From the IMG/VR virus record IMGVR_UViG_3300037067_002168, positions 24,189 to 88,188 of that record: DNA of 64,000 nt; one strand, written 5' to 3'. Shown here piece after piece: positions 6,691 through 27,121 of this stretch. The stretch comes from a virus (Duplodnaviria; Caudoviricetes). A model generated the notes under the pieces. That model worked only from the letters and a program-made list of their open reading frames with translations, had not been told where the DNA came from and ran no database searches. Within the stretch, counting starts at the first letter, position 1. Each line of letters begins with the position of its first letter. The translations under genes were made by a program, and so were the position numbers.

Positions 6691-7444
6691 TATCAGGCTG
6701 AAACGCAATCGAGCGTATCAAGGCGATTGCTTAGACTTGATGAAATATATTGAACCTAAGTCAATTGATATGATCCTTTGCGATCTACCGTATGGAACAA
6801 CGGCGTGTAAGTGGGATACTATAATCCCATTTGTACCACTTTGGGAACAGTACAACCGTGTAATCAAGGATGGTGGAGCAATCGTATTGACTGCTAGTCA
6901 ACCATTTACAAGTGCATTAGTGATGAGTAACATTAAACTGTTTAGATATGAATGGATTTGGAATAAGGGCAAAGGAAGCAATCCGTTATTATCTAAAAAA
7001 CAGCCAATGAAATCCCATGAAAATATACTTGTATTTTCAAAGCGGCAAACAAAATATATCCCGCAAATGACAGTAGGCCAAAAATATGCTGTACCAAAAA
7101 CTGGCGGAAATAGGCATAATCGGATAATTGGTTCGTTTGCAGATAACCCACATTTTGTCCAAAAAACAGATCCAACAAAGCGATTTCCTGTATCAATTCA
7201 AAATTATTCAATACACTGCGGTAGTAAATTGCACCCAACACAAAAACCCGTGGCCCTCTTTGAGTATCTCATCAAGACATACACCAATAAGGGCGATCTA
7301 GTTTTGGACAACTGCGCTGGTAGTGGAACAACCGGGATAGCATGTTTGAATACCGACCGTGATTTTATTTTGATCGAAAAACTACCTGAGTACGTAGATG
7401 TAATCAACCAGCGAATCGCCGAACACCATGCCAAAACTACCTGA
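6674..7444 (+). CDS. DNA N6-adenine/N4-cytosine methyltransferase (beta class)
   Basis: Catalytic DLPY precedes SAM-binding VLDNCAGSGTT; HPTQKPVALFEYLI. Confidence 0.93.
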   Translation: MPKLSSIRLKRNRAYQGDCLDLMKYIEPKSIDMILCDLPYGTTACKWDTIIPFVPLWEQYNRVIKDGGAIVLTASQPFTSALVMSNIKLFRYEWIWNKGKGSNPLLSKKQPMKSHENILVFSKRQTKYIPQMTVGQKYAVPKTGGNRHNRIIGSFADNPHFVQKTDPTKRFPVSIQNYSIHCGSKLHPTQKPVALFEYLIKTYTNKGDLVLDNCAGSGTTGIACLNTDRDFILIEKLPEYVDVINQRIAEHHAKTT

Positions 7445-7586: not shown

Positions 7587-8176
7587 CTGACCGGCTTCGT
7601 AAGTCCATAGTTGCCAGACCGAAAGTAGAATGGGTCAGACGGCCTGAAATACTACTAAATGAAAATATCCCTCTCCCATTACACGGAATAGCACCACGAG
7701 TAGTCTTGGGGGCGAAGTGGTGGGAAGCAACACGGCAGGCTGCCTATCGAAGCACTTCATTTCACTGTGTCGCCTGTGGTATATGGAAGGGCGTAGCTGA
7801 ATATCGACAGTGGTTGGAGGGACACGAGGTCTACCAAATTGACTATCAACGTGGCAGGGCAGTCTACATAGAAACGGTTCCACTGTGTCACTTGTGCCAC
7901 AACTTTATTCATGATGGTAGACTACAAGCCTTACTAGAACAAGGTAAAATACAGCAGGCGAAGTATGCCGCTATTTTGCAGCATGGGCATCGAGTATTAA
8001 CAGCGGTAGGTTTACGCCGTCCTACTCATGCCGAGCGAGAAAATGTAATCACTGATTTGATTGTCAAAGGCGATGTGGCTTCTTGGGATAAATGGCGGTT
8101 GGTGATTGACGGAGTAGAGTACCCGCCGTTGTATCAGACGTTTGACGATTGGAAGAAAGCGTTTAAGGTTACATAA
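7577..8176 (+). CDS. HNH-like nuclease
   Basis: CVAC...LEGHEVY...VPLCHLCHNFIH motif. Confidence 0.7.
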   Translation: MSLADRLRKSIVARPKVEWVRRPEILLNENIPLPLHGIAPRVVLGAKWWEATRQAAYRSTSFHCVACGIWKGVAEYRQWLEGHEVYQIDYQRGRAVYIETVPLCHLCHNFIHDGRLQALLEQGKIQQAKYAAILQHGHRVLTAVGLRRPTHAERENVITDLIVKGDVASWDKWRLVIDGVEYPPLYQTFDDWKKAFKVT

Positions 8177-8177
8177 G

Positions 8178-10208
8178 ATGCCGAAAATCAAACGACGTAT
8201 CATCTCTATTGATACAGAGACAACAGGATTAGACTGCTATCATGGGGCTAGACCGTTCTTGGTGACTACCTGTAACCAGCGGGATGAAGTCAGCTGGTGG
8301 GAGTGGCCAGTCGATCCGCTGACTCGTAAAGTGCAAGTAATCAAATCTGACTTATTGGAGATACAGCAAGAGATTGACCGAGCGGACGAGCTGATACTAC
8401 AAAATCCAAAGTTCGATTATAAGATGCTCTATCTTTTGTTTCAAGACGCTGGTTTGGAGTTACGATGGGATTGGACGAAAGTGCGTGATACACTGTTGGC
8501 CGGGCATCTATTGGCGAGCAATCAGCCGCACGACCTAACAACGATGGGGTTGGTCTATTTGGGAATCAACATCGAACCATTGGAGGATGGCGTCAAGAAG
8601 GCAACCCAAGAGGCGCGACGGCTAGCCAAGAATGACTACCCGACTTGGCGACTGGCGAAGGTTGGCCTACCTGAGATGCCTAGTGCCAAAGAGAGCACTT
8701 GGAAATACGATATGTGGCTACCGCGAGCGATTGCCGAGACTGAAAGCTACCCAGAAAATCACGAGTGGTGGACCGTCTGCTCTGAATATGCCAACGGCGA
8801 TAGTGCTGTAACGCTCCCACTCTATCTGAGGCAGGCAGAGATATTGAAGCAGCGGGGGTTGACTCGAATCTATCAAGAACGATTGAAGTTGTTGCCTATC
8901 GTAGTTGCTATGGAAGATCGGGGCATTACAATTAGCGGCGAACGACTGGAAGAGTTGCGGGGCGATTATGAAACAGAAAGTGGCAAGGCGGGTCGAGTAT
9001 GCAGGACAATCGCTGGTGGATTAGGCTGCGACTTAGTGCTCCCAAAATCAGGTAACAACAAATCGCTGACAGACTTTGTTTTTGGACCGTTGGGTCTCAA
9101 GGCAGAAAAATCTAGCAAGAAGACGGGTAAGCCGAGTCTTGACAAGTCAGTGTTAGAGCACTGGGAGGCGACGCTGCCAGCCCATAGTAAGGCACTGACT
9201 TTTGTCAAATCGCTCAAGGGAAAACGCAAGCGTGACACCGCATTAAACTACATGGAGGGATATAGGAAGTTCTGGATTCCACTGACTGATCAACCTGATT
9301 GGTTTTGCTTGCATCCATCGTTGAATGCGACAGGTACGGATACTCTACGGTGGAGCAGTCAGAATCCAAATGAGCAGAACATCAGTAAGCAGGAGGGATT
9401 CAACCTTCGATACATGTTTGGGCCAGCATCTGGTCGTGAGTGGTGGTCTTTGGACGCAAAGAACATTGAGCTGCGATTGCCCGCTTATGAGTCGGGTGAG
9501 ACGGATATGATTGATCTATTTGAGCGGCCAGACGATCCGCCCTATTACGGCAGCAATCATCTTCTTGTGTTTGACATCTTACACCCAGACTTATTTGCCA
9601 AGTATGGCAAGGACGTAAAAAAGCTGTTTGCGTCTACTTGGTATCAGTGGACAAAAAATGGCAATTTTGCAGTAACATATGGAGCTGTAGAACAGAGCGG
9701 CACGGCTGACCGAGCATATCATGTTACTGGAGCGCAGCATATTATCAACAGTCGATTCACGAAGATCAAACAGCTCAATGAGAGGATGATTGAGTTTGCC
9801 CAGAAGAATGGTTACGTTGAGACAATGCCGGACAAGACAGTCGATCCAAAACGTGGCTATCCATTGCTGTGTTCTCGAAATAACTGGGGTAGTATCTCGC
9901 CGACGATCCCACTCAATTACCACGTCCAGGGATCAGCATGCTGGTGGATGATGAAGGCTATGATTCGTTGCCAAGCGTTATTAGACGACTACAACGCCAA
10001 TCAAAAACCAGAATACAAAGCGTATATGGTAATGCAGATTCATGATGAAGTAGTTTTTGATTTTCCATTTGTTATAAATAAGGGTAATTTGCCTATTCTT
10101 AGAAATATATCTAAATTGATGGAAAAAAGTGGCGACGATCTAGGGGTACCCACTCCTGTAAGTCTGGAATACCACCCAAATAATTGGTCAGACGGCGAAT
10201 CAGCATGA
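8178..10208 (+). CDS. polA: family A DNA polymerase (3'-5' exonuclease + polymerase)
   Basis: ExoI IDTETTGLD, ExoII NPKFD, RWSSQNPNEQNI, motif A DAKNIELR, motif B KNGNFAVTYG, motif C IHDEVVF. Confidence 0.95.
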   Translation: MPKIKRRIISIDTETTGLDCYHGARPFLVTTCNQRDEVSWWEWPVDPLTRKVQVIKSDLLEIQQEIDRADELILQNPKFDYKMLYLLFQDAGLELRWDWTKVRDTLLAGHLLASNQPHDLTTMGLVYLGINIEPLEDGVKKATQEARRLAKNDYPTWRLAKVGLPEMPSAKESTWKYDMWLPRAIAETESYPENHEWWTVCSEYANGDSAVTLPLYLRQAEILKQRGLTRIYQERLKLLPIVVAMEDRGITISGERLEELRGDYETESGKAGRVCRTIAGGLGCDLVLPKSGNNKSLTDFVFGPLGLKAEKSSKKTGKPSLDKSVLEHWEATLPAHSKALTFVKSLKGKRKRDTALNYMEGYRKFWIPLTDQPDWFCLHPSLNATGTDTLRWSSQNPNEQNISKQEGFNLRYMFGPASGREWWSLDAKNIELRLPAYESGETDMIDLFERPDDPPYYGSNHLLVFDILHPDLFAKYGKDVKKLFASTWYQWTKNGNFAVTYGAVEQSGTADRAYHVTGAQHIINSRFTKIKQLNERMIEFAQKNGYVETMPDKTVDPKRGYPLLCSRNNWGSISPTIPLNYHVQGSACWWMMKAMIRCQALLDDYNANQKPEYKAYMVMQIHDEVVFDFPFVINKGNLPILRNISKLMEKSGDDLGVPTPVSLEYHPNNWSDGESA

Positions 10209-10675
10209 AAAAAGAGCCAGCAATTACTAGGTTTTGGAGAAAAGTACGAAAAACCAAAACCTGTTGGATTTGGACCGACCACACTGGAAAAAGAGGTACC
10301 GGAATAATCTGGATTTCAGGAAAACCGATTTCTGCCCATATATTTGCTTATGAACAATTTATAGGCCCTATACCGGATGGTCTATATATTTGCCACCATT
10401 GTGATAATCCTAAGTGTGTTAATCCAAAACACCTATTTGCTGGAACTCAAAATGACAATATGCAAGACATGAAACGTAAGAAAAGGGCAAATCACCCATT
10501 AGGAGAAGCTAATGGCAGAGCCGTACTAACTGAAGCTAATGTGCGAGAAATAAGGGCGTTTTGTAAGCCCTGGTCCAAGCAGCACGGTCAAGTTATCTAT
10601 GCTAAGAAGTTCGGTGTAACTGTGACAGCTATACAAGACGTTCTCAAACGAAAGAGATGGTCTCATGTTATCTGA
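10205..10675 (+). CDS. free-standing HNH homing endonuclease
   Basis: CWIWT...ICHHCDNPKCVNPKHL...GTQNDNMQD followed by a C-terminal HTH. Confidence 0.9.
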   Translation: MKKEPAITRFWRKVRKTKTCWIWTDHTGKRGTGIIWISGKPISAHIFAYEQFIGPIPDGLYICHHCDNPKCVNPKHLFAGTQNDNMQDMKRKKRANHPLGEANGRAVLTEANVREIRAFCKPWSKQHGQVIYAKKFGVTVTAIQDVLKRKRWSHVI

Positions 10676-11510
10676 TGTATCTAGTCTATCTCCAATAGAT
10701 CGGTTGATCTACTGGATAAAGGAGCGGGAGAGTGTTCGCCTGAAGAAAGAAGCAGGAGAACCAAAACCGTGGACAGATGATCCAATCCTACAAAAATACA
10801 GATTCTGCAATGTGCGACGGATGGATGATAAAGTCAGTCAGTGGCTGTTACACAACTGGTACGAGCCGTTTCACGATCATCCGAATATGCTGATTGCATG
10901 CTGTCTGGCTAGGTTTTTTAACCTACCTTCGTCGTTAGAAGCAATTGGGTTCCCAGAAGTTTGGGATGCTGCCAAGGTTCGATCTGTCTTACGTCGATTG
11001 AAGAAGCAGGGCAAGACGATTTTCAACGCTGCTTACATGGTGCGTGGAAACGATGGAGTTGATAAGGTTGCTTGTGTAATCAACTATTCAATCCAACCGT
11101 TAGTTAAACACCCTCCAATTATTGATACGTCTAGTATGCAAAATACTTGGAAGGCACTAGAGTGTCGGCGGGGGTTTGGATCATTTATGGCTGGACAAGT
11201 TGTTGCCGATCTACGGTGGGGATTGTCGGGCAGCTGGGAAGATAAGGGTACCTGGGCTCCTATTGGTCCTGGATCAAAACGAGGAATGAATATCCTGCTT
11301 GGTAGGGAGTTGGAATCACCGATTACGCAGAGCGATTTTAACATCCAACTCAATAATCTTATGCTCGATCTGAGAATCCGTCTACTGATTAAATTGACTG
11401 GTAGGTTGGAAGCGATTGATTATCAAAATTGTCTCTGCGAGTATTCGGGATATGAGAAAGTGCTTTGGGGTAGGGGCAGGAAGAAACAATTGTATCCTGG
11501 ATTGGTGTAG
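10665..11510 (+). CDS. 5-hmdU DNA kinase helical domain / aGPT-Pplase1 family
   Basis: WIKERESVRLKKEAG..PWTDDPILQKYRFCNVRRMDD is the family signature; context of base-modification genes. Confidence 0.85.
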   Translation: MLSDVSSLSPIDRLIYWIKERESVRLKKEAGEPKPWTDDPILQKYRFCNVRRMDDKVSQWLLHNWYEPFHDHPNMLIACCLARFFNLPSSLEAIGFPEVWDAAKVRSVLRRLKKQGKTIFNAAYMVRGNDGVDKVACVINYSIQPLVKHPPIIDTSSMQNTWKALECRRGFGSFMAGQVVADLRWGLSGSWEDKGTWAPIGPGSKRGMNILLGRELESPITQSDFNIQLNNLMLDLRIRLLIKLTGRLEAIDYQNCLCEYSGYEKVLWGRGRKKQLYPGLV

Positions 11511-11511
11511 T

Positions 11512-12063
11512 ATGGCAGTTATTGGATTAGTTGGCCCACATGCAATTGGTAAAACAACTGCCTGTTATCGCTGGCTTACTAGATACCGGGGAAAGCTGGT
11601 TTGCGCTATTGCTGATAATCAGTGGGAGGCTAGATCAGCAACAGATCGAACTAGGGTCAGGAACTGGAAAGGAACAATACAAGAGAAACAGCAGTTGGTA
11701 GAGCAATGTCAATCCCGGCAGGAAGTAATTGTAATTGACTCGGTACGCACAACCAACCTAAACTACTTTCAACCGACTGATCCAGTGATTATTGTAACTT
11801 GCAGTTGGCAAGTTATGAACCAAGTTTTGCGAGACCGGTGTAAAAGAAATAATAAGAAGTTTAACGAGAAATACTGGGATCAATGGAAATTAGACTATGA
11901 ATCACATAGACGGTATTTGAATTATGCTGCCAAAAGATTATCTGCCAGCCAGTGGAAGCATTTTGTCATAGAAGATCAAGCAAGGGACTGGCTGGCTGTT
12001 GATGATTATTTTGGTTCATTGTTTAGAAGGTTGCATAATAGGATTGTGAGAAACCGTGTCTAG
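11512..12063 (+). CDS. P-loop nucleotide kinase 1 of the base-modification cluster
   Basis: IGLVGPHAIGKTT Walker A, VIVIDS, lid-like VLRDRCKR. Confidence 0.75.
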   Translation: MAVIGLVGPHAIGKTTACYRWLTRYRGKLVCAIADNQWEARSATDRTRVRNWKGTIQEKQQLVEQCQSRQEVIVIDSVRTTNLNYFQPTDPVIIVTCSWQVMNQVLRDRCKRNNKKFNEKYWDQWKLDYESHRRYLNYAAKRLSASQWKHFVIEDQARDWLAVDDYFGSLFRRLHNRIVRNRV

Positions 12064-12601
12064 TTGTATTCAAGTAAGGGGAACTAGCGGTAGTGGAAAA
12101 TCCACGGTAATGCGTCAGGTGATACACGGCTTGGGCGATTGGGTTCCTCAATTTGTAGAAAAACGTAAGCAACCGTTGTACTATCACCACGTTGATTTTG
12201 ATCTGGTTGTTTTGGGTCACTATGGATCGCCATGCGGTGGTTGTGATACAATAGGAAGTGCTCGGGCGGTTTATGAACTGATACAACAGATTGATGCTAA
12301 GGTAATCTTGTGTGAGGGACTATTGTTGAGTGAGGATACATTATGGAGCAGCCAACTCGCTAACCTTCGAGTATTGTTCTTAACTACACCGATTCAACAG
12401 TGCTTGACTTGGATTGGTGATCGACGGATAGCAGCCGGAAACGTAAAACCCCTGAATCCAAATAACACGGTAAATCGAGTAGCTACAATAGAACGTGCTA
12501 GGCAAAAGTTAGTAAAATTAGGGGTTCCGTGTCGGCGTGCTTCTGCTAAACAAGCACCAGAAATTGTTCTTAAATGGGTCAAAGAGATATGCCAAAAATA
12601 G
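12056..12601 (+). CDS. P-loop nucleotide kinase 2 (5-hmdU kinase-type)
   Basis: VRGTSGSGKST, LGHYGSPCGGCDTI, VILCEGLL, CLTWIGDRR resemble kinases of thymidine-modifying phages. Confidence 0.8.
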   Translation: MSSCIQVRGTSGSGKSTVMRQVIHGLGDWVPQFVEKRKQPLYYHHVDFDLVVLGHYGSPCGGCDTIGSARAVYELIQQIDAKVILCEGLLLSEDTLWSSQLANLRVLFLTTPIQQCLTWIGDRRIAAGNVKPLNPNNTVNRVATIERARQKLVKLGVPCRRASAKQAPEIVLKWVKEICQK

Positions 12602-13959
12602 ATAGCAAACAACTGTCTGTAGTTCAACCAAAACTTGAAGGCTATGCCTACTTTATGCAGAACGAGCCACAGAAGAATCTGGGACCAATCCATACAGAAC
12701 AAGACGAGATTTTTGGTAAGCAAGTCAAGGTTAGAGACGTTAGCATTGCAATGATGCGTAATGCCTCTACTGCCAATCGTAAACAGGTCAAGGTCTTTCT
12801 TGAGCCATTTCCACATATACGAATTGAAAAGGCTAAAGAGTTGCAGGGTTGGTACAAAGGAGCCAACGAGCGCAATCAGGTACGGCCACGACCCTGTTGG
12901 ACGGAGGCATTGTTAACTCAACCTTACGGTGGATTTTGCCCAAATTCCTGTCTGTTTTGTTATATTGATTCTGGCATGCGTGGTTATCGGGCGACGGGAT
13001 TGATGACGGTGCCTATCAATTATGGGGAGCAGATCAGACAACAACTGAAAAAGATTCGTCGCGGATCGGCCGGATACTTTACCAGCTTCCACGACCCGTT
13101 CAATCCGCTGGAGAAAATCTACCACAATAGTCAACAGGCTGCTGAAGCATTTATTGAGGTTGGGTTGCCTATTTTCTTTCTCAGCCGTCTTCGCTATCCA
13201 GATTGGGCAATTGATTTGTTGACTAGAAACAAATACAGCTATGCCCAGAAAAGTATCAATACTTCCGATGCGGACGATTGGCACAAACTATCACCGGGAG
13301 TTCCACCGCTGGCTACACAATTGGAAGATATACGCCGATTGAAATCCGCCGATGTTTACGTATCAGTACAAGTCAATCCTATAGTTCCAGGAGTAACAAG
13401 CAATCAGCAGATTGTAGAGTTGTTCAGGATGTTGGCTGAGGTAGGCGCAAATCACGTGATTGTTAAGTTCGTTGAAGCAGCTTACTCTTGGGCTCCAACA
13501 ATGATCCAAAAGATGGTAGATGCTTTTGGTGATCGTGGTAGACGATTTGGAGAATTGTTTACGCAGAACATTGGCGGCGAGAAAACGGTTGACGAAGATT
13601 ATCGTATGCGGGCCCACAAGGTGTTTACCAGTTATGCCAAACGGTATGGATTGACTTACGGCACTTGCTACGAATACCGTTGGGAGAGAAATGAAAGCGG
13701 TGGTATTGTAAACAAAACAGGCATCAGCATTGGACCTGAAGTTACGACTGGGGCACAATGCCACGGCCAACGAGTACCAATGTTTACTCGTAACAGAGCA
13801 GATGAGATATTTCGTGAAGTATCCGTTTGTCCACCATCTGGATGCCTCTATTGTTCAGAAAACAACGGCGGTACTCCCCGTTGTGGAGACGTTCTGGCAG
13901 GAGAAGCAGCAGCGCTTCGGATGGCTGATTTGAAGAAGCCGATTGGTTTACCAAAATGA
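12589..13959 (+). CDS. radical SAM enzyme (SPL-like; candidate glycyl-thymidine isomerase)
   Basis: LTQPYGGFCPNSCLFCY CxxxCxxC; YFTSFHDPF; adjacent to the amino acid:DNA transferase. Confidence 0.8.
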   Translation: MPKIDSKQLSVVQPKLEGYAYFMQNEPQKNLGPIHTEQDEIFGKQVKVRDVSIAMMRNASTANRKQVKVFLEPFPHIRIEKAKELQGWYKGANERNQVRPRPCWTEALLTQPYGGFCPNSCLFCYIDSGMRGYRATGLMTVPINYGEQIRQQLKKIRRGSAGYFTSFHDPFNPLEKIYHNSQQAAEAFIEVGLPIFFLSRLRYPDWAIDLLTRNKYSYAQKSINTSDADDWHKLSPGVPPLATQLEDIRRLKSADVYVSVQVNPIVPGVTSNQQIVELFRMLAEVGANHVIVKFVEAAYSWAPTMIQKMVDAFGDRGRRFGELFTQNIGGEKTVDEDYRMRAHKVFTSYAKRYGLTYGTCYEYRWERNESGGIVNKTGISIGPEVTTGAQCHGQRVPMFTRNRADEIFREVSVCPPSGCLYCSENNGGTPRCGDVLAGEAAALRMADLKKPIGLPK

Positions 13960-14762
13960 CTCAACAAAAAGGAAAACTGGGTGTTGTTGAGTTTGGTCGC
14001 CAGTTGATTGAGACTGGTGATTTAGACCCCTTATACATCGCCCTATGGAAGGCGAGATTACCGCATAAGAAATTGTGCCAATGGCTGGTGTGCTACTTCT
14101 GCTATTACCATGCTGGACTATCCTCCTGGGTCGTAGATCAACTGGAGCAGAACGAATGGGACATCCTAGACAAAATAGCTCGCGGAGGAACCGCCTATCC
14201 ACGCGGGTCGGAACGCCGGCACTTTCGTGGGCAGTTAGCTATCAAAGCAGTGGAGAAGCTGCGTAGCACGTTCTCCGATGGCGAGGAATTGATTAGATGG
14301 GTAGGCGACGGCGGCCCACGCGCCAACGGTGTGATGTCTCGTGTACGATCCTTGTACGGGTTCGGAGAGTGGATCAGCGGGAAAGTGCCAGACATCTGCG
14401 AACGTCTGAAGCTATTTCCTGTCAAGTTTGTTGATCGGGACATAGATTACATGTTTGATTCGCCTAAGAAGGGCGCAATCGAAGTGGCAAACAGATACGC
14501 TCCATCAGACGATCCGCTAATGTCGGCGCACCGATACCTAATCCAACAACTGTCGTCGATCAAGGCACCGCCGAGATACGAACGCGGTATCAACGTGCAG
14601 GAGACGGAGACGATTTTTTGTAAGGTTCATGCCTATTGGAATGGAACATACGAGGTAGGCAAAGATACGCGGGAGATTAGGCACGGGCTGCTTCGATATG
14701 CTAGGAGTAAGACTAGCCAGATTTTGCTTCGGACGATGCCTAGCGTGGTGGTAGGGGGCTAG
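13956..14762 (+). CDS. amino acid:DNA transferase (aGPT-Pplase2 family)
   Basis: LIETGDLDPLY, YFCYYHAG, YPRGSERRHFRG, FGEWISGKVPD, NVQETETIFCK. Confidence 0.88.
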   Translation: MTQQKGKLGVVEFGRQLIETGDLDPLYIALWKARLPHKKLCQWLVCYFCYYHAGLSSWVVDQLEQNEWDILDKIARGGTAYPRGSERRHFRGQLAIKAVEKLRSTFSDGEELIRWVGDGGPRANGVMSRVRSLYGFGEWISGKVPDICERLKLFPVKFVDRDIDYMFDSPKKGAIEVANRYAPSDDPLMSAHRYLIQQLSSIKAPPRYERGINVQETETIFCKVHAYWNGTYEVGKDTREIRHGLLRYARSKTSQILLRTMPSVVVGG

Positions 14763-14764
14763 AA

Positions 14765-15589
14765 ATGGCTATTAGGACGGGTAGGATAACCGCTGGTGGT
14801 ATGCTTAGGGAGGGAACCCCCCTAGAAGACTACCAGGAGCAATACGGTTTATGGGTAAAGCGCGAAGACAAATCGTGCGTGCCTCCTGGTCCACCGTTCT
14901 CCAAAGCGCGTGGCGTGTATGCCAGGATTGCTAGTCGTCCTGAAACAATTATCGGCGTGCTGGATACATATCATTCCCAGGGTGGGCACGCTGCTGCTAG
15001 AGCGTGTCAAATACTGGGTAAGCAGTGTTTAGATTTTTATCCAGAATACAAACACGATCCTGGATGCCGGGAACCACAACTCAGAGCAAAATCCTTGGGA
15101 GCTGAATTGATTGGTCTGCCGGCCGGTAGGTCGGCGATACTGTTTCATACAGCCAAAAAATACGCAGAAGCATGCAGAGGTTACATGCTACCGAACGCCC
15201 TAAAATTAGAAGAGTCAATTGAAGAAACGGCGAAAGAAGTGCCAGACCGCTGCTTTGATAACGTGCTGATCTCGGCAAGCAGTGGTACAATCGCCGCAGG
15301 AGTAATTCGCGGATTTTCTCGACGCAAAATATCAATCAATAGATACTTGATTCACCTTGGATATACTCGATCACATGATTCAGTGCTGCAATACCTGGCT
15401 GTGTCGTCCGGTGGCGTAACGAACTGCGTAGAAATAGTTGACGAGGGGTATCAGTACAAAGACAAAGCAAAACCGGGCGATACTCCTCCGTGGCCTTGCA
15501 ACGAATACTACGACCTGAAGGCATTTCGTTGGTGGATAGCCAATCGATCTAGGTATGACGGAAAAACTCTATTTTGGAATATAGGTTAA
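14765..15589 (+). CDS. PLP-dependent fold-type II enzyme (candidate DNA-base decarboxylase)
   Basis: WVKRED...PPFSKARG Lys motif, ISASSGTIAAG phosphate loop, YYDLKAF, TLFWNIG. Confidence 0.85.
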   Translation: MAIRTGRITAGGMLREGTPLEDYQEQYGLWVKREDKSCVPPGPPFSKARGVYARIASRPETIIGVLDTYHSQGGHAAARACQILGKQCLDFYPEYKHDPGCREPQLRAKSLGAELIGLPAGRSAILFHTAKKYAEACRGYMLPNALKLEESIEETAKEVPDRCFDNVLISASSGTIAAGVIRGFSRRKISINRYLIHLGYTRSHDSVLQYLAVSSGGVTNCVEIVDEGYQYKDKAKPGDTPPWPCNEYYDLKAFRWWIANRSRYDGKTLFWNIG

Positions 15590-15710
15590 ACAAATGAACC
15601 AAGATACTCCAGCAGTTGATATACGGTCTAATGATTTGGCCCATAACGTAGAGGCGCTATCTGATTGCTCATCAAAAATAAATCCACAATCAATAAGTAC
15701 GGCTCTATTT

Positions 15711-15745
15711 ACCAAAATAAAACCCAGGAGGATTAGTCCTGGGTT
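15711..15745 (-). terminator. intrinsic terminator of the minus-strand gene
   Basis: AACCCAGGA/TCCTGGGTT 9-bp stem (15721-15745) followed on the - strand by a T-rich tract. Confidence 0.7.
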
Positions 15746-15774
15746 GTAACTGAGTGAAATTGTCGAGGGTTGAG

Positions 15775-16359
15775 TTACAGCTTGGCAGCTGCAGTTTTGC
15801 CCTCGGCGCTGATTTCATACGTCGGTACCGTTCGGCCGCCAACATCATCTTGAGGACCAAACTTGACCAGACCTAAGCTCAGCAATGAAGGAAAGTGCTT
15901 TGCGTCGTTTGCGGCGCGAACATCGGGATCATGCGAACCAATCCATTCCACGCATCCGGCCGTGTCAACTCCGCCCTTTTCGGCGATCTGGGCGCGGGTC
16001 ATGGCTTTGCCCGCATTGGCCAAGCACTGGAGGATTTTCACCTGCGATTTGCGCAGACCGTCCTTCTTGGCTTTTTCGGCCTTAACTTCGGCCTTAGCTG
16101 CCTTCACCGACTTCACTGGCTTATCGGCCTTAACTTCGGCCTTAGCTGCCTTCACCGACTTCACTGGCTTATCGGCCTTAACTTCGGCCTTAGCTGCCTT
16201 CACCGACTTCACTGGCTTATCGGCCTTGACTGCCTTGGCCGGTTTGGCTGCCTTCACCGACTTCACTGGCTTATCGGCCTTGACTGCCTTGGCCTGTGCG
16301 TCGCTGACGGCAGGGGTGGATTCGGTACGTTCAACTGGGGCACCAATTTCGGGACACAT
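15775..16359 (-). CDS. histone H1/AlgP-like Lys-Ala repeat protein with a C-terminal winged-helix domain
   Basis: Repeats of KADKPVKSVKAAKAEV; C-terminal GLRKSQVKILQCL..AMTRAQIAEKGG..YEISAEG; RBS AGGAGAG; own promoter and terminator. Confidence 0.8.
   Translation of the reverse strand: MCPEIGAPVERTESTPAVSDAQAKAVKADKPVKSVKAAKPAKAVKADKPVKSVKAAKAEVKADKPVKSVKAAKAEVKADKPVKSVKAAKAEVKAEKAKKDGLRKSQVKILQCLANAGKAMTRAQIAEKGGVDTAGCVEWIGSHDPDVRAANDAKHFPSLLSLGLVKFGPQDDVGGRTVPTYEISAEGKTAAAKL
16076..16294. repeat. 48-bp coding tandem repeat (3 exact copies, one 54-bp variant and a partial copy)
   Basis: TCGGCCTTAACTTCGGCCTTAGCTGCCTTCACCGACTTCACTGGCTTA at 16076, 16124 and 16172. Confidence 0.95.
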
Positions 16360-16428
16360 GTTCGTTCTCTCCTGTTACCTGCGTCGGGCAGGTTTCCGGT
16401 TGACTGATTACTTTCAATCAACTCTTGC

Positions 16429-16457
16429 ATTATAAATAGTATCGGCGAATAAGTCAA
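16429..16457 (-). promoter_or_regulatory. near-consensus sigma70 promoter
   Basis: Minus strand TTGACT-17 nt-TATAAT upstream of the histone-like gene. Confidence 0.8.
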
Positions 16458-16531
16458 TAGATATTTGGGTTATTTTTACGGATTTCTCAAAATAATTGTA
16501 AGTTGTTTTCCCACACCAAGTTAGGATTACC

Positions 16532-18484
16532 ATGCACTATCACTTTCGCAATGTAAACACGGCATTCAAGGGTATTCTGGAGGCAATTGAGTATCCAAAC
16601 GCAGTTCTCCAGGGCCTCAAAACTCGATTCTGCAACAGTCGTGCTGGGTCTGTACGTATGGTTGACGAACCAGTCACAGTTACTTACGAGCGACCAGTAG
16701 AACGAGTGCTGTTTAATCCAGCCAGAGACGCAAACCCGTTCTTCCACGTTTTTGAGAGCCTTTGGATGATTGCTGGCCGTAACGATGTTAAACCGTTGGC
16801 CTACTATAACAGCAAGATTGCTGAGATAGCTAGCGACGACGGTGAAACTTTCAACGGTGCTTACGGCTATCGGTGGAGACATTCGCCGGTTGGCCACTTA
16901 GAGTATGAAGGAACTTCCATTATTGATCAACTCAAACTCATTACCAATCAACTCAAACAAAAGCCGGAGAGCCGTCGCTGTGTTTTGCAAATGTGGGGGA
17001 TTGAAAATGATCTATTAAGGATAGATGATACTAAAGATGTCTGTTGTTTAGCTGGAGAAACGAAGTTTAGATCACCAGAAGGAGATATTTGTATTTCAAG
17101 TCTTGCTAAAAACTTTCAAGATAGAAAGGGATACAAGTTTCCTGTTTACAGTGTAGATACAATTACTGGCGATCAGAGATTGTGTTGGATGACCAATGTT
17201 TGGAGAGTTGGCACAAAGCCAGTGCTCAGACTTAGATTTGATGATGGTTCTTCGATCCGGCTAACCTCGGATCATAAGGTGTTTAGAAAACATTGGCTAT
17301 ATGAGAATGGCAAGCGAACAGGATTAGGTGTTGAGGAGTGTTGTGCTGGTGACTTGAACCCTGGCGATCGGTTACTAGCTGAAATGTCCAAAACAGCTAA
17401 GTACCGTTCTTTAGGGGGAGGCTATCGCACGTTTAGGAGAAATCTGTTTGTTGGAACAGAGCATAGAAATATGGTGTATGAACACCGAGAATATGTGGCT
17501 TTAGCCCTGGGACTGGTTTCCCATAAAGATGGATATTCAATTCATCACATAGATGGTAATAAGCAAAATAACTGTCTGGTTAATCTCTGTCAAATAGAGA
17601 CTGGAAAGCATCTAGCAATAGGTAAGTGCGGAGTAGCTAATCCATACTACAAACGATCTAAAGAATCTAAGACCCAGTTTCAACAATCTGGCCTAGCTGC
17701 TATTCAGGAATTGAGGAGACAGTTGCCTAATGAGTTGAGAAAAGCTCTATTCACTAAGTCGGCTTGCCGGTCTGTAGAGCAACAAGTTATAGTCGAAGAA
17801 TACCGCAGTTCAAAGAGTAACCATAAAATCACGGCCATTGAAGATGGTGGTGTTATGCCTGTTTACGATTTCACTGTTCCTGGCAGACATAATGCTGTTC
17901 TCGACAATGGTGTGGTAGTCCATAATTGCAATACTCATGCCTACTTTGCTTTGCGCGACGGGCGTTTAGACATGACTGTCTGCAACAGATCGAATGATCT
18001 AATTTGGGGAATGTTGGGAGCCAATGCAGTTCACTTCAGTTTTCTAATTGAATATCTAGCTGCTTGTATTGGAGTTGAAGTAGGTGTCTACAATCAATTC
18101 ACCAACAACCTACACGCCTATACCGATCGGTGGGAACCAGATAAGTGGTTGGCTGACTATCGAGAAGGCGAAAGTCAATCAGATAAGTGGTATGCCGATG
18201 GAAATTATCATCACGTTCCGCTGGTTAAGAATCCAGAGACTTTCGATAAGGAATGTGCTGCGTTTGTAGACAGTTGGCAAGGCACTTGGACAGAGCCGTT
18301 CTTGGCTAGTGTGGCAGCGCCGATGTGTAGGGCGTTTGATCTACACAAACTACGGCGATACAGCGAAGCGATTGCTGTTGCAGATTCTATCGCTGACGAT
18401 GCTTGGCGAATTGCTAGCCATGCCTGGATCGAACGTCGCCAACAGAATTGGGAGAAGCGTGATGCATCCACCAGTACTGACTAA
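16532..18484 (+). CDS. thymidylate-synthase-family dUMP hydroxymethylase (intein-containing)
   Basis: RDANPFFHVFESLW, GAYGYRWRH, SRRCVLQMW, spliced KDVC-CNTH, RSNDLIWG..GANAVHF (Asn indicates dUMP specificity); hydroxymethylase function inferred from context. Confidence 0.85.
   Translation: MHYHFRNVNTAFKGILEAIEYPNAVLQGLKTRFCNSRAGSVRMVDEPVTVTYERPVERVLFNPARDANPFFHVFESLWMIAGRNDVKPLAYYNSKIAEIASDDGETFNGAYGYRWRHSPVGHLEYEGTSIIDQLKLITNQLKQKPESRRCVLQMWGIENDLLRIDDTKDVCCLAGETKFRSPEGDICISSLAKNFQDRKGYKFPVYSVDTITGDQRLCWMTNVWRVGTKPVLRLRFDDGSSIRLTSDHKVFRKHWLYENGKRTGLGVEECCAGDLNPGDRLLAEMSKTAKYRSLGGGYRTFRRNLFVGTEHRNMVYEHREYVALALGLVSHKDGYSIHHIDGNKQNNCLVNLCQIETGKHLAIGKCGVANPYYKRSKESKTQFQQSGLAAIQELRRQLPNELRKALFTKSACRSVEQQVIVEEYRSSKSNHKITAIEDGGVMPVYDFTVPGRHNAVLDNGVVVHNCNTHAYFALRDGRLDMTVCNRSNDLIWGMLGANAVHFSFLIEYLAACIGVEVGVYNQFTNNLHAYTDRWEPDKWLADYREGESQSDKWYADGNYHHVPLVKNPETFDKECAAFVDSWQGTWTEPFLASVAAPMCRAFDLHKLRRYSEAIAVADSIADDAWRIASHAWIERRQQNWEKRDASTSTD
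17045..17926 (+). mobile_element. 294-aa intein with an HNH homing endonuclease
   Basis: N-terminal CLAGETK, block B LTSDHKVF, internal IHHIDGNKQNN..NL, C-terminal VYDFTV...VVHN followed by +1 Cys. Confidence 0.95.
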
Positions 18485-19031
18485 GAAGGACTTCGTTGTT
18501 CGATACCAGGCTAGTGAGTTCGGCAATCATTCGCCAACATGGAATAACTGGCAAGAATGGTTGGATGACGACGGGCGTAGGTTTGGTGATCTATTTCACA
18601 TTCGTAATCGGGTTGCTGGCGGTAAAACGTGGTACAATGTGCCCTATTATCTACTGGGTACTCAGTGGGAAGAATCTTGTAGAAATTGCGGCAGTTCTCT
18701 ACTGTATATTTCCGCGATGGCTCCACACCAATATAATCTCATTCAGGGTGAAGTACAACGTGGGATTTTTGGGCTCGATCTATATTACAGTCTTATAGTT
18801 GGAAAACCAATGAGAGAGGCTCTTGCCGAAGATGCCAGGAGTGTTTCAGGACTACAAGCGAAGGTTATAATAGACTATTTCCTGTGTCCCAATAGCTGTG
18901 AATGGATGAAAGTGCTACTGGATAGATATCAAGAACCGTCTCATGTAGTAGAGTTTACCACTCTTTCTGTAGAATGGGGCACTTTACCTGGATATAACAC
19001 ATTATTTTGGGAAGTAAGAGGTGGATATTGA
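18462..19031 (+). CDS. hypothetical protein coupled to the hydroxymethylase
   Basis: ATG 18462 overlaps the upstream gene end; globular 189 aa ending HVVEFT...FWEVRGGY. Confidence 0.7.
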   Translation: MHPPVLTKKDFVVRYQASEFGNHSPTWNNWQEWLDDDGRRFGDLFHIRNRVAGGKTWYNVPYYLLGTQWEESCRNCGSSLLYISAMAPHQYNLIQGEVQRGIFGLDLYYSLIVGKPMREALAEDARSVSGLQAKVIIDYFLCPNSCEWMKVLLDRYQEPSHVVEFTTLSVEWGTLPGYNTLFWEVRGGY

Positions 19032-19555
19032 CTATTCTTCTATCAGAAAAATACAAACGAAGATTTGAGTCTAAGTACATTCAGATGGGAGAAGACGATT
19101 GTTGGGAATGGATAGCATGTAAGTATCCATCTGGGTATGGGTGTTTTTCTGGCTCAGAACACTATGCCCATAGGGTGTCCTATTGTCTCTATATTGGTAG
19201 TATACCAAAAGGTGTATGTGTTCTTCACCATTGTGATAACCCATCTTGTGTTAATCCAAACCACCTATTCTTAGGACTTCAAGCAGATAATGTGAGGGAT
19301 ATGTTGCAAAAGAATAGGAGGGGAGATACAAGGGTTTATGGAAACCGGAATGGTGCCCGTATTCACCCAGAAATCAGACAGGGTGAGAATAATGGGAGTT
19401 CAGTTTTGACTGAATTAAGTGTAGTAGAAATTAGAAAGTTGTATACGAGAGATAGATATCATCACAGTAATATAAGGCAGTTATCTACGCGATTTGGCGT
19501 TTCTAGATCAACTATTAAGTCAATTGTAGCTAGCAAATCTTGGAAACATATCTAG
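19007..19555 (+). CDS. free-standing HNH homing endonuclease
   Basis: DCWEW...YAHRVSY...VLHHCDNPSCVNPNHL...DNVRDM; start codon uncertain. Confidence 0.9.
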   Translation: MGSKRWILTILLSEKYKRRFESKYIQMGEDDCWEWIACKYPSGYGCFSGSEHYAHRVSYCLYIGSIPKGVCVLHHCDNPSCVNPNHLFLGLQADNVRDMLQKNRRGDTRVYGNRNGARIHPEIRQGENNGSSVLTELSVVEIRKLYTRDRYHHSNIRQLSTRFGVSRSTIKSIVASKSWKHI

Positions 19556-19567
19556 GAGACAATAACG

Positions 19568-20089
19568 ATGCAAGATTATGTTCACCAATCGTTTGAACGG
19601 TGCGGTCAACTCTGGAACAGAACAGACATCCTACTCAAGATAGCAGAAGAACTGGGAGAGTTGGTGCAATCCTTTCGCAAGAAAGACAGTGATAGTCATA
19701 GACACGAGTTTGGCGATCTAGTGTTTTCTGTATTTGCTTTAGCCGAGCGTGAGGGATTTAACATCAACGATCAACTGTGTGCTGCCGTTGTTCGTTTCGA
19801 GAAACATTGTAGTTGTCTAGTTAGTAATCGAATCAAAGAGCAAGACAGGGATAGGATCAACGCCGGTGGATATTGCGAAACGAATGCTTTTGGCGATACG
19901 AGGGATGGACTTACGCCCACTTCTAGGATGATGTATGATTTACGAGAAGCGCGAGATTTACCTGAATTGACTGACGATTATCCTTACCGATGTATAGACT
20001 GCAATAGACAACCAACCCATAAAACCAATGGTCTAAGAGTTTGTCCAGATTGTATGGCTGTTCATAAACCAAAAATTATCCATAAATGA
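19568..20089 (+). CDS. MazG-like dNTP pyrophosphohydrolase with a C-terminal Zn-ribbon extension
   Basis: KIAEELGELVQ...HEFGDLVF acidic motifs; CIDC...CPDC tail. Confidence 0.8.
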   Translation: MQDYVHQSFERCGQLWNRTDILLKIAEELGELVQSFRKKDSDSHRHEFGDLVFSVFALAEREGFNINDQLCAAVVRFEKHCSCLVSNRIKEQDRDRINAGGYCETNAFGDTRDGLTPTSRMMYDLREARDLPELTDDYPYRCIDCNRQPTHKTNGLRVCPDCMAVHKPKIIHK

Positions 20090-20105: not shown

Positions 20106-22346
20106 ATGCCAAAAATCAACAAAGAGCTACCAGAAAAATTACGTCCCTACGCCTTTCTAGGGCTGGACATAGTCTATCGTCCTGGAGAGAAGGACGTGAT
20201 GTGCGATTGTCCGTGGTGCGGTCGAGAGCAGAAGTTTGGTATCAACGCGGATACTGGTCAGTGGCGATGTTTTGTCTGTGGCGAAGGATCGGCGAAGGGT
20301 GGTGGCAATGTCGCTACGTTTTTGACGAAACTGTGGGAGATCAGTGATCGAACTACCAAGGACTATTCATGGATAATGGCCAGCAGAAGATTACTGTCTG
20401 CTGATACCCTAAGTTATTGGGGTACCATCCAATCTTGTGTTACTGGAGATTGGATCGTGCCTGGCTACGGCGTGGATGGTAAGATTCACCAACTCTACAA
20501 GTGCCTGTCTGTCAATGATAAATTACGTCTGCTACCGACGCCAACATTGGGACATCAATTGCATGGCGTCTACGACCAGCGTAAGTCCATCGTCTATCTA
20601 TGCGAAGGCCCCTGGGACGGTATGGCACTATGGGAGATGCTAGGTCGGGCGAAACCGACAGATAGTAGTGGGCTGGTCGCGACGGCCAGTGCTGATCGTA
20701 GTCTGCTGGCCTCTGCCTGCGTCCTGGCAGTGCCAGGGTGCAACGTATTCTTTGAGTCCTGGATGCCACTGTTTGCTGACAAGATCGTCCGGCTGATGTA
20801 CGATAGTGACCACCCAAGAAAGCATCCGCAGACGGGTAACATGACGCCTCCAACAGGTCTGACGGCTATGCAGAGAGTGGCAAGGATACTGGCGTCAGCG
20901 ACGACACCGCCGAAGTCGATCGAGTATCTTCGCTGGGGTGATCTTGGCTATGATCCAGACAAGCCTAGCGGTTATGACGTCAGAGACTATTTGACAGAAG
21001 GTAGATCAGTCTCTGACCGGGTAACAAGACTCGACGGGCTACTGAGCCGTCTCTCGCAAGTACCAGATGATTGGGTCGGAAAAGACCCAGATGGAAAGAC
21101 GGCGGCAAATCCTAAGCAACTGACTTGCCTATCCTGCTCCTCCTATACTAAATTGACGACAGCCTGGCGTAAGGCGCTGCGGTGGACTGATGGGTTAGAC
21201 CACGCTCTAGCCGTCATGCTCGCCTCGATCGCGTCGGTCAAGATATTAGGTGACCCCTTGTGGATTAAGGTGGTTTCTCCAGCGGCATCTGGCAAGAGCA
21301 CGCTTGCTGAAGCTGTGAGTGTTGCTAAAAAATACATAGTTGCGAAGAGTACGATTCGGGGGTTTCATTCTGGATTCAAGGAAGACGGGTCAGAGGGAGA
21401 GGATAATAGCCTACTGTCGCAGTTATTTGACAAGACTTTGATCATTAAAGACGGCGACACACTATTGCAAAGCCCGAATCTATCGCAGATATTGTCTGAG
21501 GCGAGAGACATCTACGACGGTACGTCAAGGACGAGCTACCGAAATAAGATGAGTAAGGACTACGAGGGCATAAGACTGACGATCATCCTGTGCGGGACTA
21601 GTTCATTGCGCGCCTTAGATTCGTCAGAGTTGGGCGAGCGGTTCTTGGACTGCGTGATCATGGACGCCATCGACGACGAGTTAGAGGATGAGATACTGTG
21701 GCGAGTGGCGAATCGGGCGGATCGATGTATGTCGATGGCAACGAACGGTGACGCTGAAAGTCAGTATGAGGCCGAGATGACGGCCGCCATGCGTATGACA
21801 GGCGGCTATGTAAACTGGCTGAGAGAGAACGCCGCTGAAGTTTTGGGTGGTATTATTATGCCCAGCGCCGCCAAGCGGCAATGTACGCGGTTCGGTAAGT
21901 TCGTAGCTCACATGCGCGCCAGGCCCAGTCTTCGCCAGGAGGAAGTGGCTGAACGGGAGTTCGCATCACGTTTAGTCAGCCAACTTACTAGGCTGGCTAA
22001 ATGTCTGGCTCTGGTGTTGAACCGGCCTACTGTAGATGATACAGTCATGTCTCGTGTTCGTCGTATAGCACTGGATACGAGTCGTGGGCAGACGTTATCT
22101 ATCGTGAGTCACCTATATGATTGCCCAGAGGGGCTAGAAAGCAGTAGCGTATCATTACTAACAGGCCGATCCGACGATAAGACGAAACCACTGTTACGAT
22201 TCTTACGGGCCATAGGAGCTATCGAATTATTTAACCCAGAATCATCGGGCGGGTTAAAACGTCGCCCGCGCTGGCGACTATCACCGAAGATGTATAAATT
22301 ATACACAGACACAGTAGTTATCAGCGATGTTAAAGATAACTCTTAA
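20106..22346 (+). CDS. DNA primase-helicase (Zn finger + TOPRIM + AAA/MCM-like ATPase)
   Basis: CPWC...CFVC, YLCEGPWDG, MYDSD, SPAASGKSTL, IIKDGDT, ELGERFL. Confidence 0.9.
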   Translation: MPKINKELPEKLRPYAFLGLDIVYRPGEKDVMCDCPWCGREQKFGINADTGQWRCFVCGEGSAKGGGNVATFLTKLWEISDRTTKDYSWIMASRRLLSADTLSYWGTIQSCVTGDWIVPGYGVDGKIHQLYKCLSVNDKLRLLPTPTLGHQLHGVYDQRKSIVYLCEGPWDGMALWEMLGRAKPTDSSGLVATASADRSLLASACVLAVPGCNVFFESWMPLFADKIVRLMYDSDHPRKHPQTGNMTPPTGLTAMQRVARILASATTPPKSIEYLRWGDLGYDPDKPSGYDVRDYLTEGRSVSDRVTRLDGLLSRLSQVPDDWVGKDPDGKTAANPKQLTCLSCSSYTKLTTAWRKALRWTDGLDHALAVMLASIASVKILGDPLWIKVVSPAASGKSTLAEAVSVAKKYIVAKSTIRGFHSGFKEDGSEGEDNSLLSQLFDKTLIIKDGDTLLQSPNLSQILSEARDIYDGTSRTSYRNKMSKDYEGIRLTIILCGTSSLRALDSSELGERFLDCVIMDAIDDELEDEILWRVANRADRCMSMATNGDAESQYEAEMTAAMRMTGGYVNWLRENAAEVLGGIIMPSAAKRQCTRFGKFVAHMRARPSLRQEEVAEREFASRLVSQLTRLAKCLALVLNRPTVDDTVMSRVRRIALDTSRGQTLSIVSHLYDCPEGLESSSVSLLTGRSDDKTKPLLRFLRAIGAIELFNPESSGGLKRRPRWRLSPKMYKLYTDTVVISDVKDNS

Positions 22347-26215: not shown

Positions 26216-27121
26216 ATGAATGTTGGGATCATAGGTCAGGGATTTGTTGGCACCGCCGTTCGAGAAGGTCTACGCAAACATCATACAATTCTTACTTATG
26301 ATAAAAAACACTTGGACCATATTGACTATTTTGCCGGCGATTTAGGACGGTCGCAGCCGTCGTCGTCTCCGGTCAGTCAATTATGCGTCGATTGCGCTGT
26401 AATCTTTATCTGCTTGCCGACTCCGATGGGTATGGACGGCTCCTGTGATACAAGTATCGTTGAGTCCACCATCGCTCTGATTTACGATGCGCGTCGGAAT
26501 CGGCAAAGTGAATCAGTTGGGTTATGCTATTCTCCGACGATCATCATCAAGTCAACAGTACCGCCAGGAACGACGAAGGAATTGATGGGTAAGTATCCTG
26601 GAACTAAAATCTGTTTCAACCCGGAGTTTCTCACGGAAAGAGATCCAGTCGGTGATTTTCAACGACAGAATCGGATCGTCATTGGTGTAGAAGACCGGGG
26701 GACTGCGACGGCAGTGTCTCTGATGTACCGAGAGGCATTTCCAGGAGTTGAGCAGTGCGTCGTCGATTCTACTACGGCAGAATTAGTCAAGTATTTTACC
26801 AACGTCGCCCTGGCCGTCCGCGTATCGTTGGCAAATGAGTTTTATCAGATTGCTCAAAAGTTAGATTTAGACTATGGGCAGGTCCAGAAAATTGCTAATT
26901 TAGATCCTCGATTAGGCGGCAGTCATTGGCAGGTGCCTGGGTTAGACGGTAAGATGGGATTTAGTGGGAGCTGCTTTCCTAAGGATTTGAATGGATTGAT
27001 CACATTCGCTGAGTCGATCGGAGTATCCTGCCCTACGATGCTTGGCGCTTGGCAGACAAACTTAAACGTGCGACCAGAGCGAGACTGGGAACAATTGGTT
27101 GGCCGTGCTGTCATAGGATAA
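26216..27121 (+). CDS. UDP-glucose/GDP-mannose dehydrogenase family protein (lacks C-terminal domain)
   Basis: IIGQGFVG, ICLPTP, IIKSTVPPGTT, FNPEFLTE, ELVKY..N, GFSGSCFPKD with catalytic Cys. Confidence 0.93.
   Translation: MNVGIIGQGFVGTAVREGLRKHHTILTYDKKHLDHIDYFAGDLGRSQPSSSPVSQLCVDCAVIFICLPTPMGMDGSCDTSIVESTIALIYDARRNRQSESVGLCYSPTIIIKSTVPPGTTKELMGKYPGTKICFNPEFLTERDPVGDFQRQNRIVIGVEDRGTATAVSLMYREAFPGVEQCVVDSTTAELVKYFTNVALAVRVSLANEFYQIAQKLDLDYGQVQKIANLDPRLGGSHWQVPGLDGKMGFSGSCFPKDLNGLITFAESIGVSCPTMLGAWQTNLNVRPERDWEQLVGRAVIG

Follow-up and report, generated by a model that had tools for sequence, protein, structure and literature searches.

Gene content of the modification block

The DNA analyzed here is a 64,000-nt window comprising bases 24189-88188 of the 88,188-bp IMG/VR record IMGVR_UViG_3300037067_002168, which has a CheckV grade of complete; all positions below are those of the window unless a relative is named. 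Nearly all window genes are carried on the + strand. Portal, MuF-like head, major capsid and tape-measure proteins indicate a tailed phage. Positions 10665-20089, between a family A DNA polymerase gene and a primase-like gene, hold a block that is probably a working M6-type thymidine-hypermodification module, placed in the replication operon of this uncultured 88-kb phage. Pseudomonas phage M6 (Yuavirus) converts part of its thymidine to 5-(2-aminoethyl)-deoxyuridine (5-NedU), and this is also the most likely product here. Coordinates of all features are collected in Table 1. A sequence-only reading of the window had listed a 5-hydroxymethyl-deoxyuridine (5-hmdU) kinase helical domain (HMUDK_hel), two P-loop kinases, a radical S-adenosylmethionine (SAM) enzyme, an amino acid:DNA transferase (ADDT), a pyridoxal phosphate (PLP) enzyme, a thymidylate synthase (TS)-family enzyme and MazG in this block. 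These components, all on the + strand, were borne out by Pfam, by PHROGs and by comparison with M6.

Table 1. Predicted genes and features of the modification block and its surroundings (window positions).
Feature	Position	Strand	Evidence and remarks
B12-binding radical SAM gene	5347-6690		best NCBIfam matches HpnJ and HpnR, far below cut-offs; 4 kb upstream of module
Family A DNA polymerase (PolA) with 3'-5' exonuclease	8142..10208	+	PF00476 E 5e-36; upstream module flank
Free-standing HNH homing endonuclease	10184-10675	+	HNH_3 E 6e-13; inserted between polA and HMUDK_hel
HMUDK_hel, aGPT-Pplase clade of M6 gp55; predicted helical partner of DNA kinase	10665-11510	+	PF18723 E 1e-41, 143 bits
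Extra P-loop protein, nucleoside monophosphate (NMP) or nucleoside kinase fold	11512-12063	+	AAA_18 30 bits; dNK weak
Predicted 5-hmdU DNA kinase (5-HMUDK), M6 gp54 orthologue	12056-12601	+	phrog_800 (family of gp54) E 7e-16
Predicted radical SAM N-alpha-GlyT to C-alpha-GlyT isomerase, M6 gp53 orthologue	12574-13959	+	phrog_9252 E 8e-168
Predicted ADDT (aGPT-Pplase2), orthologue of M6 gp51 and PaMx11 gp46	13956-14762	+	PF18724 33 bits, above cut-off
Fold-type II PLP enzyme, orthologue of M6 gp52 C-alpha-GlyT decarboxylase	14765-15589	+	phrog_7093 E 4e-58
Stub of methyltransferase-like gene	15594-15749	+	51-aa open reading frame, ~35 conserved codons
Winged helix-turn-helix (wHTH) DNA-binding protein	15775-16359	-	clade conservation
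TS-family enzyme, predicted dUMP hydroxymethylase, M6 gp58 orthologue	16532-18484	+	PF00303 in two halves; phrog_5131 E 6e-94
Class 1 intein, 294 aa, with HNH endonuclease domain	17045-17926	+	Intein_splicing E 2e-11, HNH_3; precursor residues 172-465
ATP-grasp-fold protein, 189 aa	18462-19031	+	overlaps hydroxymethylase stop by 23 nt
Second free-standing HNH homing endonuclease	19007-19555	+	HNH_3 E 7e-10
MazG-type all-alpha NTP pyrophosphohydrolase	19568-20089	+	PF03819 27 bits, above cut-off
Primase-like replication protein	20106..22346	+	phrog_47 weak, E 7e-7; downstream module flank across clade

Core enzymes shared with M6

Four M6 proteins have been reconstituted in vitro (PMC8989533): gp54 phosphorylates the DNA, gp51 then transfers glycine to it, gp53 isomerizes the glycyl group from an N-link to a C-link, and gp52 decarboxylates the result, yielding 5-NedU. 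The block was compared with the annotated M6 region by tblastn, scanned with Pfam and PHROGs, and aligned residue by residue with proteins of M6 and of the Pseudanabaena cyanophage Pam3. Orthologues of all six M6 genes (gp51-gp55 and gp58) were found, at 27-53% identity and with E values from 3e-12 to 1e-160. Pfam scores exceed the cut-off for TS and MazG, as they do for HMUDK_hel (PF18723) and ADDT (PF18724), two of the families whose profiles the sequence-only reading had expected to match.

The radical SAM enzyme is the best conserved of these proteins, at 53% identity to M6 gp53 across 95% of its length (E 1e-160); it retains the CX3CX2C motif (as CPNSCLFC) and the C-terminal Cys residues of a proposed second cluster. 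The PLP enzyme is 45% identical to M6 gp52 and 53% identical to Pam3 gp43, and its Schiff-base lysine is kept, the lysine of FSK corresponding to M6 K36. The DNA kinase (27-28% identity to gp54, E 3e-12) has an intact Walker A motif, GTSGSGKS, that aligns with GCNGSGKT of gp54. In most related loci its gene adjoins that of HMUDK_hel, which is 28% identical to M6 gp55 (E 1e-32), a protein that is dispensable in vitro (PMC8989533).

The ADDT is 35% identical to M6 gp51 and matches the structure of PaMx11 gp46 (PDB 8Z2M) at E 1e-40. Cys247, Glu243 and Thr244 are kept within QETETIFCK, which contains the Glu-Thr metal site and the nucleophilic Cys. In the PaMx11 gp46 structure glycine is held by a Trp, a Lys and an Asp (PMC11472151); when aligned to the residues named there, the motifs GEWISGK and GDLDP supply the equivalents Trp146, Lys150 and Asp24. 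These residues fit glycine as the amino acid moved by this enzyme, which is accordingly a predicted glycine transferase.

The hydroxymethylase and its intein

The TS-family enzyme is 40-44% identical to M6 gp58, and among PDB sequences it is nearest to MilA, a CMP hydroxymethylase, rather than to a ThyA. The catalytic Cys is present. The Asn that the sequence-only reading had picked out as specifying dUMP was confirmed by alignment: it is a uracil-type Asn and falls opposite the Asp of cytosine-specific MilA. The matches listed among cultured phages include ones in which hmdU is known or predicted, namely the M6/YuA-like, Bordetella, SP10, SPO1-like and ViI-like phages. This is the sole TS-family gene in the whole record, and searches of the record found no ThyX and no dCMP deaminase. 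The enzyme is predicted to hydroxymethylate dUMP rather than to methylate it.

The reading frame is 650 aa long because it contains a 294-aa intein, with boundaries KDVC/CLAGET and VVVHN/CNTHAYF and TSDH as block B. All canonical splicing residues are kept (Cys1, TxxH, the C-terminal HN and the +1 Cys). The +1 Cys is itself the catalytic Cys of the hydroxymethylase; M6 reads PCN at this point, and the alignment to M6 picks up exactly at Cys466. Among related loci, L013-L015 have an intein at the identical site (48% identical; 8548-9420 in L013), and L022 (578-1573) has a different one, 29% identical and located ~34 residues downstream. The hydroxymethylase of this clade thus hosts inteins at two distinct sites.

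Conservation and exchange of the cassette in related loci

Fifty-six related IMG/VR loci were compared (individual loci are given by L numbers). The gene order in this clade is PolA, HMUDK_hel, DNA kinase, a variable cassette, the wHTH protein, the TS-like enzyme, the ATP-grasp-fold gene and the primase-like gene. PolA is 46-63% identical in the relatives, where it lies immediately 5' of HMUDK_hel, and the primase-like protein is 30-65% identical in most loci and lies 3' of the ATP-grasp-like gene wherever gene order was examined. The M6-type cassette (radical SAM, ADDT and PLP enzyme) is found in L007, L008, L016, L020, L021, L028, L035, L038, L044 and L049, at 33-69% identity to the window. 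Because both the gene order and the cassette are shared by at least 10 related contigs, the set is under selection.

Other loci carry different genes in the same slot. L025 (3906-6909) has a PaMx11-type ADDT, an FAD oxidoreductase and a GNAT protein, and L029 has an ADDT with an FAD oxidoreductase. A TET-associated-glycosyltransferase (TAGT)-like protein, an unknown gene and a SPASM radical SAM enzyme occupy it in L018 (3915-6521), and a Mom-family protein and a 391-aa unknown protein in L013 (4929-6864). Variation is also seen next to the TS-like gene: some relatives have an NT5C deoxynucleotidase gene 5' of it, whereas the window lacks NT5C and, like L008, has MazG. By sequence comparison, the phage is a member of an uncultured clade in which the flanks stay fixed and the tailoring cassettes can be exchanged. 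The pattern is the combinatorial one that was described for metagenomic contigs by Lee et al. 2021 (PMC8989533).

The ATP-grasp-fold protein

The gene that follows the hydroxymethylase encodes a 189-aa protein for which nothing was found in Pfam, NCBIfam, PHROGs, the ESM Atlas, or a phmmer search of PDB. Its homologues number 432, with identities of 50-63%, and no Pfam domain is present in any of them. A profile of the family matches at least 1474 cluster representatives; it matched no chain among PDB sequences, and the collection of cultured phages has no member. A model made with AlphaFold (AF2) from the family alignment has a pLDDT of 93.5. All listed Foldseek matches of this model in PDB (E from 6e-5) are ATP-grasp-fold proteins, as are all 50 VIA-align entries (48,161 chains; Z up to 8.8, which is moderate), and Foldseek against viral models also leads to ATP-grasp proteins; TM in these comparisons is about 0.5. 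The fold assignment is therefore consistent across methods and of moderate strength. By this model the ATP-binding core matches that of the ATP-grasp superfamily (Ddl, RimK/LysX, synapsin, ITPK and the nucleotide-binding domain of PPDK), whereas the 189-aa protein is shorter and without an N-terminal domain. Invariant residues of the family are K8, E97, E164, E184 and R186. ATP-grasp enzymes have E-x-N on the last strand; here the last strand, read by eye, is E-V-R at what appears to be the same position.

A TS-like match is present in 47 of the 56 related loci, and the 189-aa gene stands immediately after the TS-like gene in every locus whose gene order was examined (19/19). Distant members of the family are without this linkage and adjoin, or are fused to, HD-type 5'-deoxynucleotidase-like or DUF4406 proteins, all weak matches. 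The fusion protein P0215 has an N-terminal domain with an HD-like motif, HDAHEAYTGD, that was read by eye. P0263 contains DUF4406 at 22.5 bits, a weak match and the only Pfam match among the fusion partners; we take DUF4406 to be nucleoside-deoxyribosyltransferase-like. The fusions hint at deoxynucleoside monophosphate metabolism. Our tentative proposal, which we hold at well below even confidence, is that the 189-aa protein is an unrecognized enzyme of modified-deoxynucleotide pool metabolism, possibly a 5-hmdUMP kinase of non-P-loop type.

Other genes in and around the block

The extra P-loop protein lies in a 215-aa reading frame whose true start is at 11512, which gives a protein of 183 aa. 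In its Atlas model the structure is like that of guanylate and NMP kinases, with TM of 0.63-0.69 to clusters of guanylate kinase, AAA_18 and Ploopntkinase3. Just 17 homologues were found among 5.8 billion proteins, and none in the clade loci or in cultured phages. The protein is thus specific to this phage within the clade. As a guess guided by the model, it is a candidate 5-hmdUMP kinase; ViI and SP10 also carry a second kinase (PMC5889632).

MazG aligns with E. coli MazG (3CRA, E 2e-5), including the metal motif EELGE...EFGDL, and matches NCBIfam PRK09562 at 2e-9, far under the cut-off of that model. We guess that it clears dTTP and dUTP, which would fit exclusion of thymidine. Homologues of M6 gp56/Nmad5, of the M6 HD hydrolase gp59, of the NT5C nucleotidase and of a 326-aa protein of L007 were searched for, and none is present in the record.

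The two free-standing HNH genes that flank the module are paralogues (38% identical) and, together with the intein, make three HNH elements within 10 kb. In several relatives (e.g. L007, L027 and L028), HMUDK_hel begins within about 80 bp 3' of polA.

Directly after the PLP gene lies a stub that is 47-56% identical to the N-termini of proteins from L020, L021 and L049, where a ~185-aa gene is found 3' of the PLP gene. All three proteins carry the motif DIRYGLGGWA, and that of L021 has a weak FtsJ match (E 0.003), so this gene probably encodes a methyltransferase, here truncated. L038 has the same methyltransferase-like family after its PLP gene, yet gives no match to the stub. Phages L020, L021, L038 and L049 may make a methylated derivative of 5-NedU.

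The wHTH protein is encoded by the only minus-strand reading frame of the module that is conserved in relatives, and lies between the cassette and the hydroxymethylase clade-wide. Eight loci match it; identity is 46-57% in seven of them and 36% in L007, with E down to 1e-37. The L021 orthologue has weak matches to EarA, MarR and PadR. The N-terminus is lysine-rich, with a 16-aa repeat encoded by 4.4 copies of a 48-bp repeat at 16068-16285. The protein is a probable regulator or DNA-coating protein. Note that a 190-aa reading frame on the plus strand (15863-16435) was rejected as a gene; it is a shadow of the minus-strand frame, which is the better conserved of the two. The lysine-rich repeat recalls histone H1.

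Upstream of the polymerase, the B12-binding radical SAM gene is translationally coupled to a CcrM-like N6/N4 (adenine-type) DNA methyltransferase gene (5347-7444 for the pair). No counterpart of the radical SAM gene was found in the records of five relatives, one of which is complete.

Phage backbone and host

No match was obtained when the modification block was searched by megablast against 50,697 phage records, or when the portal protein was searched by tblastn against the same set, and PolA is at most 25% identical to those of cultured phages. By these sequence searches the phage backbone is new and differs from that of every cultured phage. As no cultured relative was matched, the host cannot be read from relatives. 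A scan of genome contigs with the ATP-grasp family matched only related phage contigs that had been binned into two metagenome-assembled genomes (MAGs), one of Dehalococcoidia and one of Armatimonadota, and these were rejected as evidence of the host. One of them, JBAZEO010000006.1 (L063/L064; 73,771 bp), is a clade phage contig inside a Dehalococcoidia MAG and is the same as IMGVR_UViG_3300037067_001795; its placement there is probably a binning artefact. Matches to the ATP-grasp-fold gene are found near both ends of this contig. At the head of the late region, the window also encodes a short (301-aa) homologue of UDP-glucose/GDP-mannose dehydrogenase (26216-27121).

Comparison with known systems

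The closest characterized system is the 5-NedU cluster of M6 and other Yuavirus members (Lee et al. 2018, PMC5889632; Lee et al. 2021, PMC8989533). Six families are shared, a DNA polymerase gene adjoins, and the predicted product is the same; in the kinase, the transferase and the radical SAM and PLP enzymes, those residues that were checked are conserved. The window differs in that the order is permuted to gp55-(extra P-loop)-gp54-gp53-gp51-gp52 ... gp58 and the backbone is unrelated. MazG stands in place of the HD hydrolase gp59 and a gp56/Nmad5 homologue is lacking; the hydroxymethylase bears an intein, and the extra P-loop and ATP-grasp-fold proteins are additional. Pam3 shares the six families at 25-53% identity (gp43, gp46, gp47, gp49, gp50 and gp52); it differs from the window in having an M6-like replication module with Nmad5 and a 5'-deoxynucleotidase. 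Since Pam3 carries the same six families, the cassette already spans distant hosts. The 5-AcNmdU cluster of PaMx11 (gp46 ADDT, gp47 FAD lyase, gp48 acetyltransferase and gp49 kinase) has in common with the window the kinase and the glycine-transferring ADDT, whereas in the window radical SAM and PLP enzymes take the place of the FAD lyase and acetyltransferase.

M6-like clusters in IMG/VR contigs were already reported by Lee et al. 2021 (Fig. 2, sequences 2-5; PMC8989533). Those contigs, like the window, are from uncultured viruses and encode 5-HMUDK, aGPT-Pplase2, radical SAM and PLP enzymes with a dUMP hydroxymethylase nearby. The module is thus a new example of a known anti-restriction system and is not new in kind. 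Its extras are unreported. Those that merit reporting are the intein at the catalytic Cys, the partner family with an ATP-grasp fold, the truncated methyltransferase-like gene and a clade that swaps its cassettes.

Proposed pathway and alternatives

In the pathway that we propose, the TS-like enzyme would shed its intein and convert dUMP to 5-hydroxymethyl-dUMP. A phage kinase, for which the extra P-loop protein and the ATP-grasp-fold protein are candidates, would then form 5-hmdU diphosphate, and host enzymes would make the triphosphate. Competing dTTP and dUTP would be removed by MazG. From the 5-hmdUTP so formed, 5-hmdU is presumably incorporated by the phage PolA. In DNA, the P-loop kinase, probably with HMUDK_hel, would phosphorylate 5-hmdU, an activity demonstrated for the M6 orthologue. 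The remaining steps are likewise those demonstrated for M6 orthologues: the ADDT would exchange the phosphate for glycine, the radical SAM enzyme would move the glycine from an N-link to a C-link, and decarboxylation by the PLP enzyme would yield 5-(2-aminoethyl)-deoxyuridine. With its positive charge, this base would shield a fraction of thymine positions from host nucleases. The sequence-only reading had proposed that 5-hmdU replaces thymidine and is hypermodified to a 5-NedU-like base. The second part is supported as far as sequence can show, as the four reconstituted M6 enzymes all have orthologues here with the checked residues kept; full replacement is not to be expected, as only about 30% of T is replaced in M6 (PMC5889632).

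Several points weigh against this pathway. In Pfam, Radical_SAM falls short of its cut-off and PALP just misses it, and the DNA kinase and HMUDK_hel are only 27-28% identical to their M6 counterparts. Hydroxymethylase and methylase activities cannot be told apart by sequence. Guesswork underlies the roles given to MazG and to the two nucleotide-kinase candidates. Finally, the B12-dependent radical SAM enzyme could add a step, and its gene is the main reason for leaving room for a product other than 5-NedU. Such a product could arise if 5-NedU or an intermediate were tailored further, for example by C- or N-methylation by the upstream enzyme, or if the ADDT used an amino acid other than glycine. 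We consider it unlikely that an M6-like pathway ends in this way. In its favor are the coupling of the B12-binding enzyme to a DNA methyltransferase 4 kb upstream and its absence from the five relatives' records, the methyltransferase-like gene and 326-aa unknown protein that follow the PLP gene in relatives, and the modest identity (just 35%) of the ADDT to characterized enzymes. Against these, the B12 enzyme lies outside the module and beside an adenine-type methyltransferase, and the methyltransferase-like gene of the cassette itself is truncated in the window. The ADDT keeps the glycine-contacting residues of PaMx11 gp46, and the best-conserved genes are those of the radical SAM (53%) and PLP (45%) enzymes, partners that require a glycyl adduct. 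The suggestion in the sequence-only reading that extra genes point to a variant base is weak: HMUDK_hel is standard in M6, MazG fits exclusion of thymidine, the extra P-loop protein is nucleotide-kinase-like, and the only tailoring-type gene of relatives is incomplete in the window.

It is also conceivable, and in our estimate quite improbable, that the module is decaying, such that the intein-split hydroxymethylase or another member is inactive and the DNA holds T or plain 5-hmdU. The methyltransferase stub, the invasion by three HNH elements and the lack of the NT5C deoxynucleotidase found in relatives would all be in keeping with decay. All eight enzyme reading frames are nevertheless full length with the checked residues intact; the intein has its complete set of splicing residues and occupies a site common to L013-L015, and MazG can stand in for the nucleotidase. 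Least probable of all, at a level that we regard as very low, is that the TS-family enzyme is an ordinary thymidylate synthase and that the kinase and transferase act on something besides 5-hmdU in DNA. True thymidylate synthases have both the Pfam Thymidylat_synt match and the uracil-type Asn in common with this enzyme, but it is closest to enzymes from phages that make hmdU (M6, SP10, and the SPO1-like and ViI-like phages), and among solved structures a hydroxymethylase, not a ThyA, is its nearest match in sequence. An alternative source of hmdU, a TET/JBP oxidase, was not found in the record by a search that was run without a positive control. We therefore prefer the M6-type pathway ending in 5-NedU.

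Significance

If the assignment is correct, the 5-NedU pathway extends from Yuavirus-like siphoviruses to an unrelated and widespread clade of uncultured phages. The DNA of the window phage would probably be partly resistant to restriction enzymes, and the sequencing signal at its T positions may be unusual. Should the 189-aa protein prove to be a kinase, it would fill the step between hydroxymethylase and polymerase in the clade members examined. More generally, the conserved flank genes, those of the ATP-grasp-fold protein, the wHTH protein and HMUDK_hel, may supply general steps that are missing from the known scheme of hmdU-based DNA modification. With M6-type sets, PaMx11-type sets, a glycosyltransferase with a SPASM radical SAM enzyme, and a Mom-like set all occupying one slot, the clade offers a natural library in which to look for new DNA bases.

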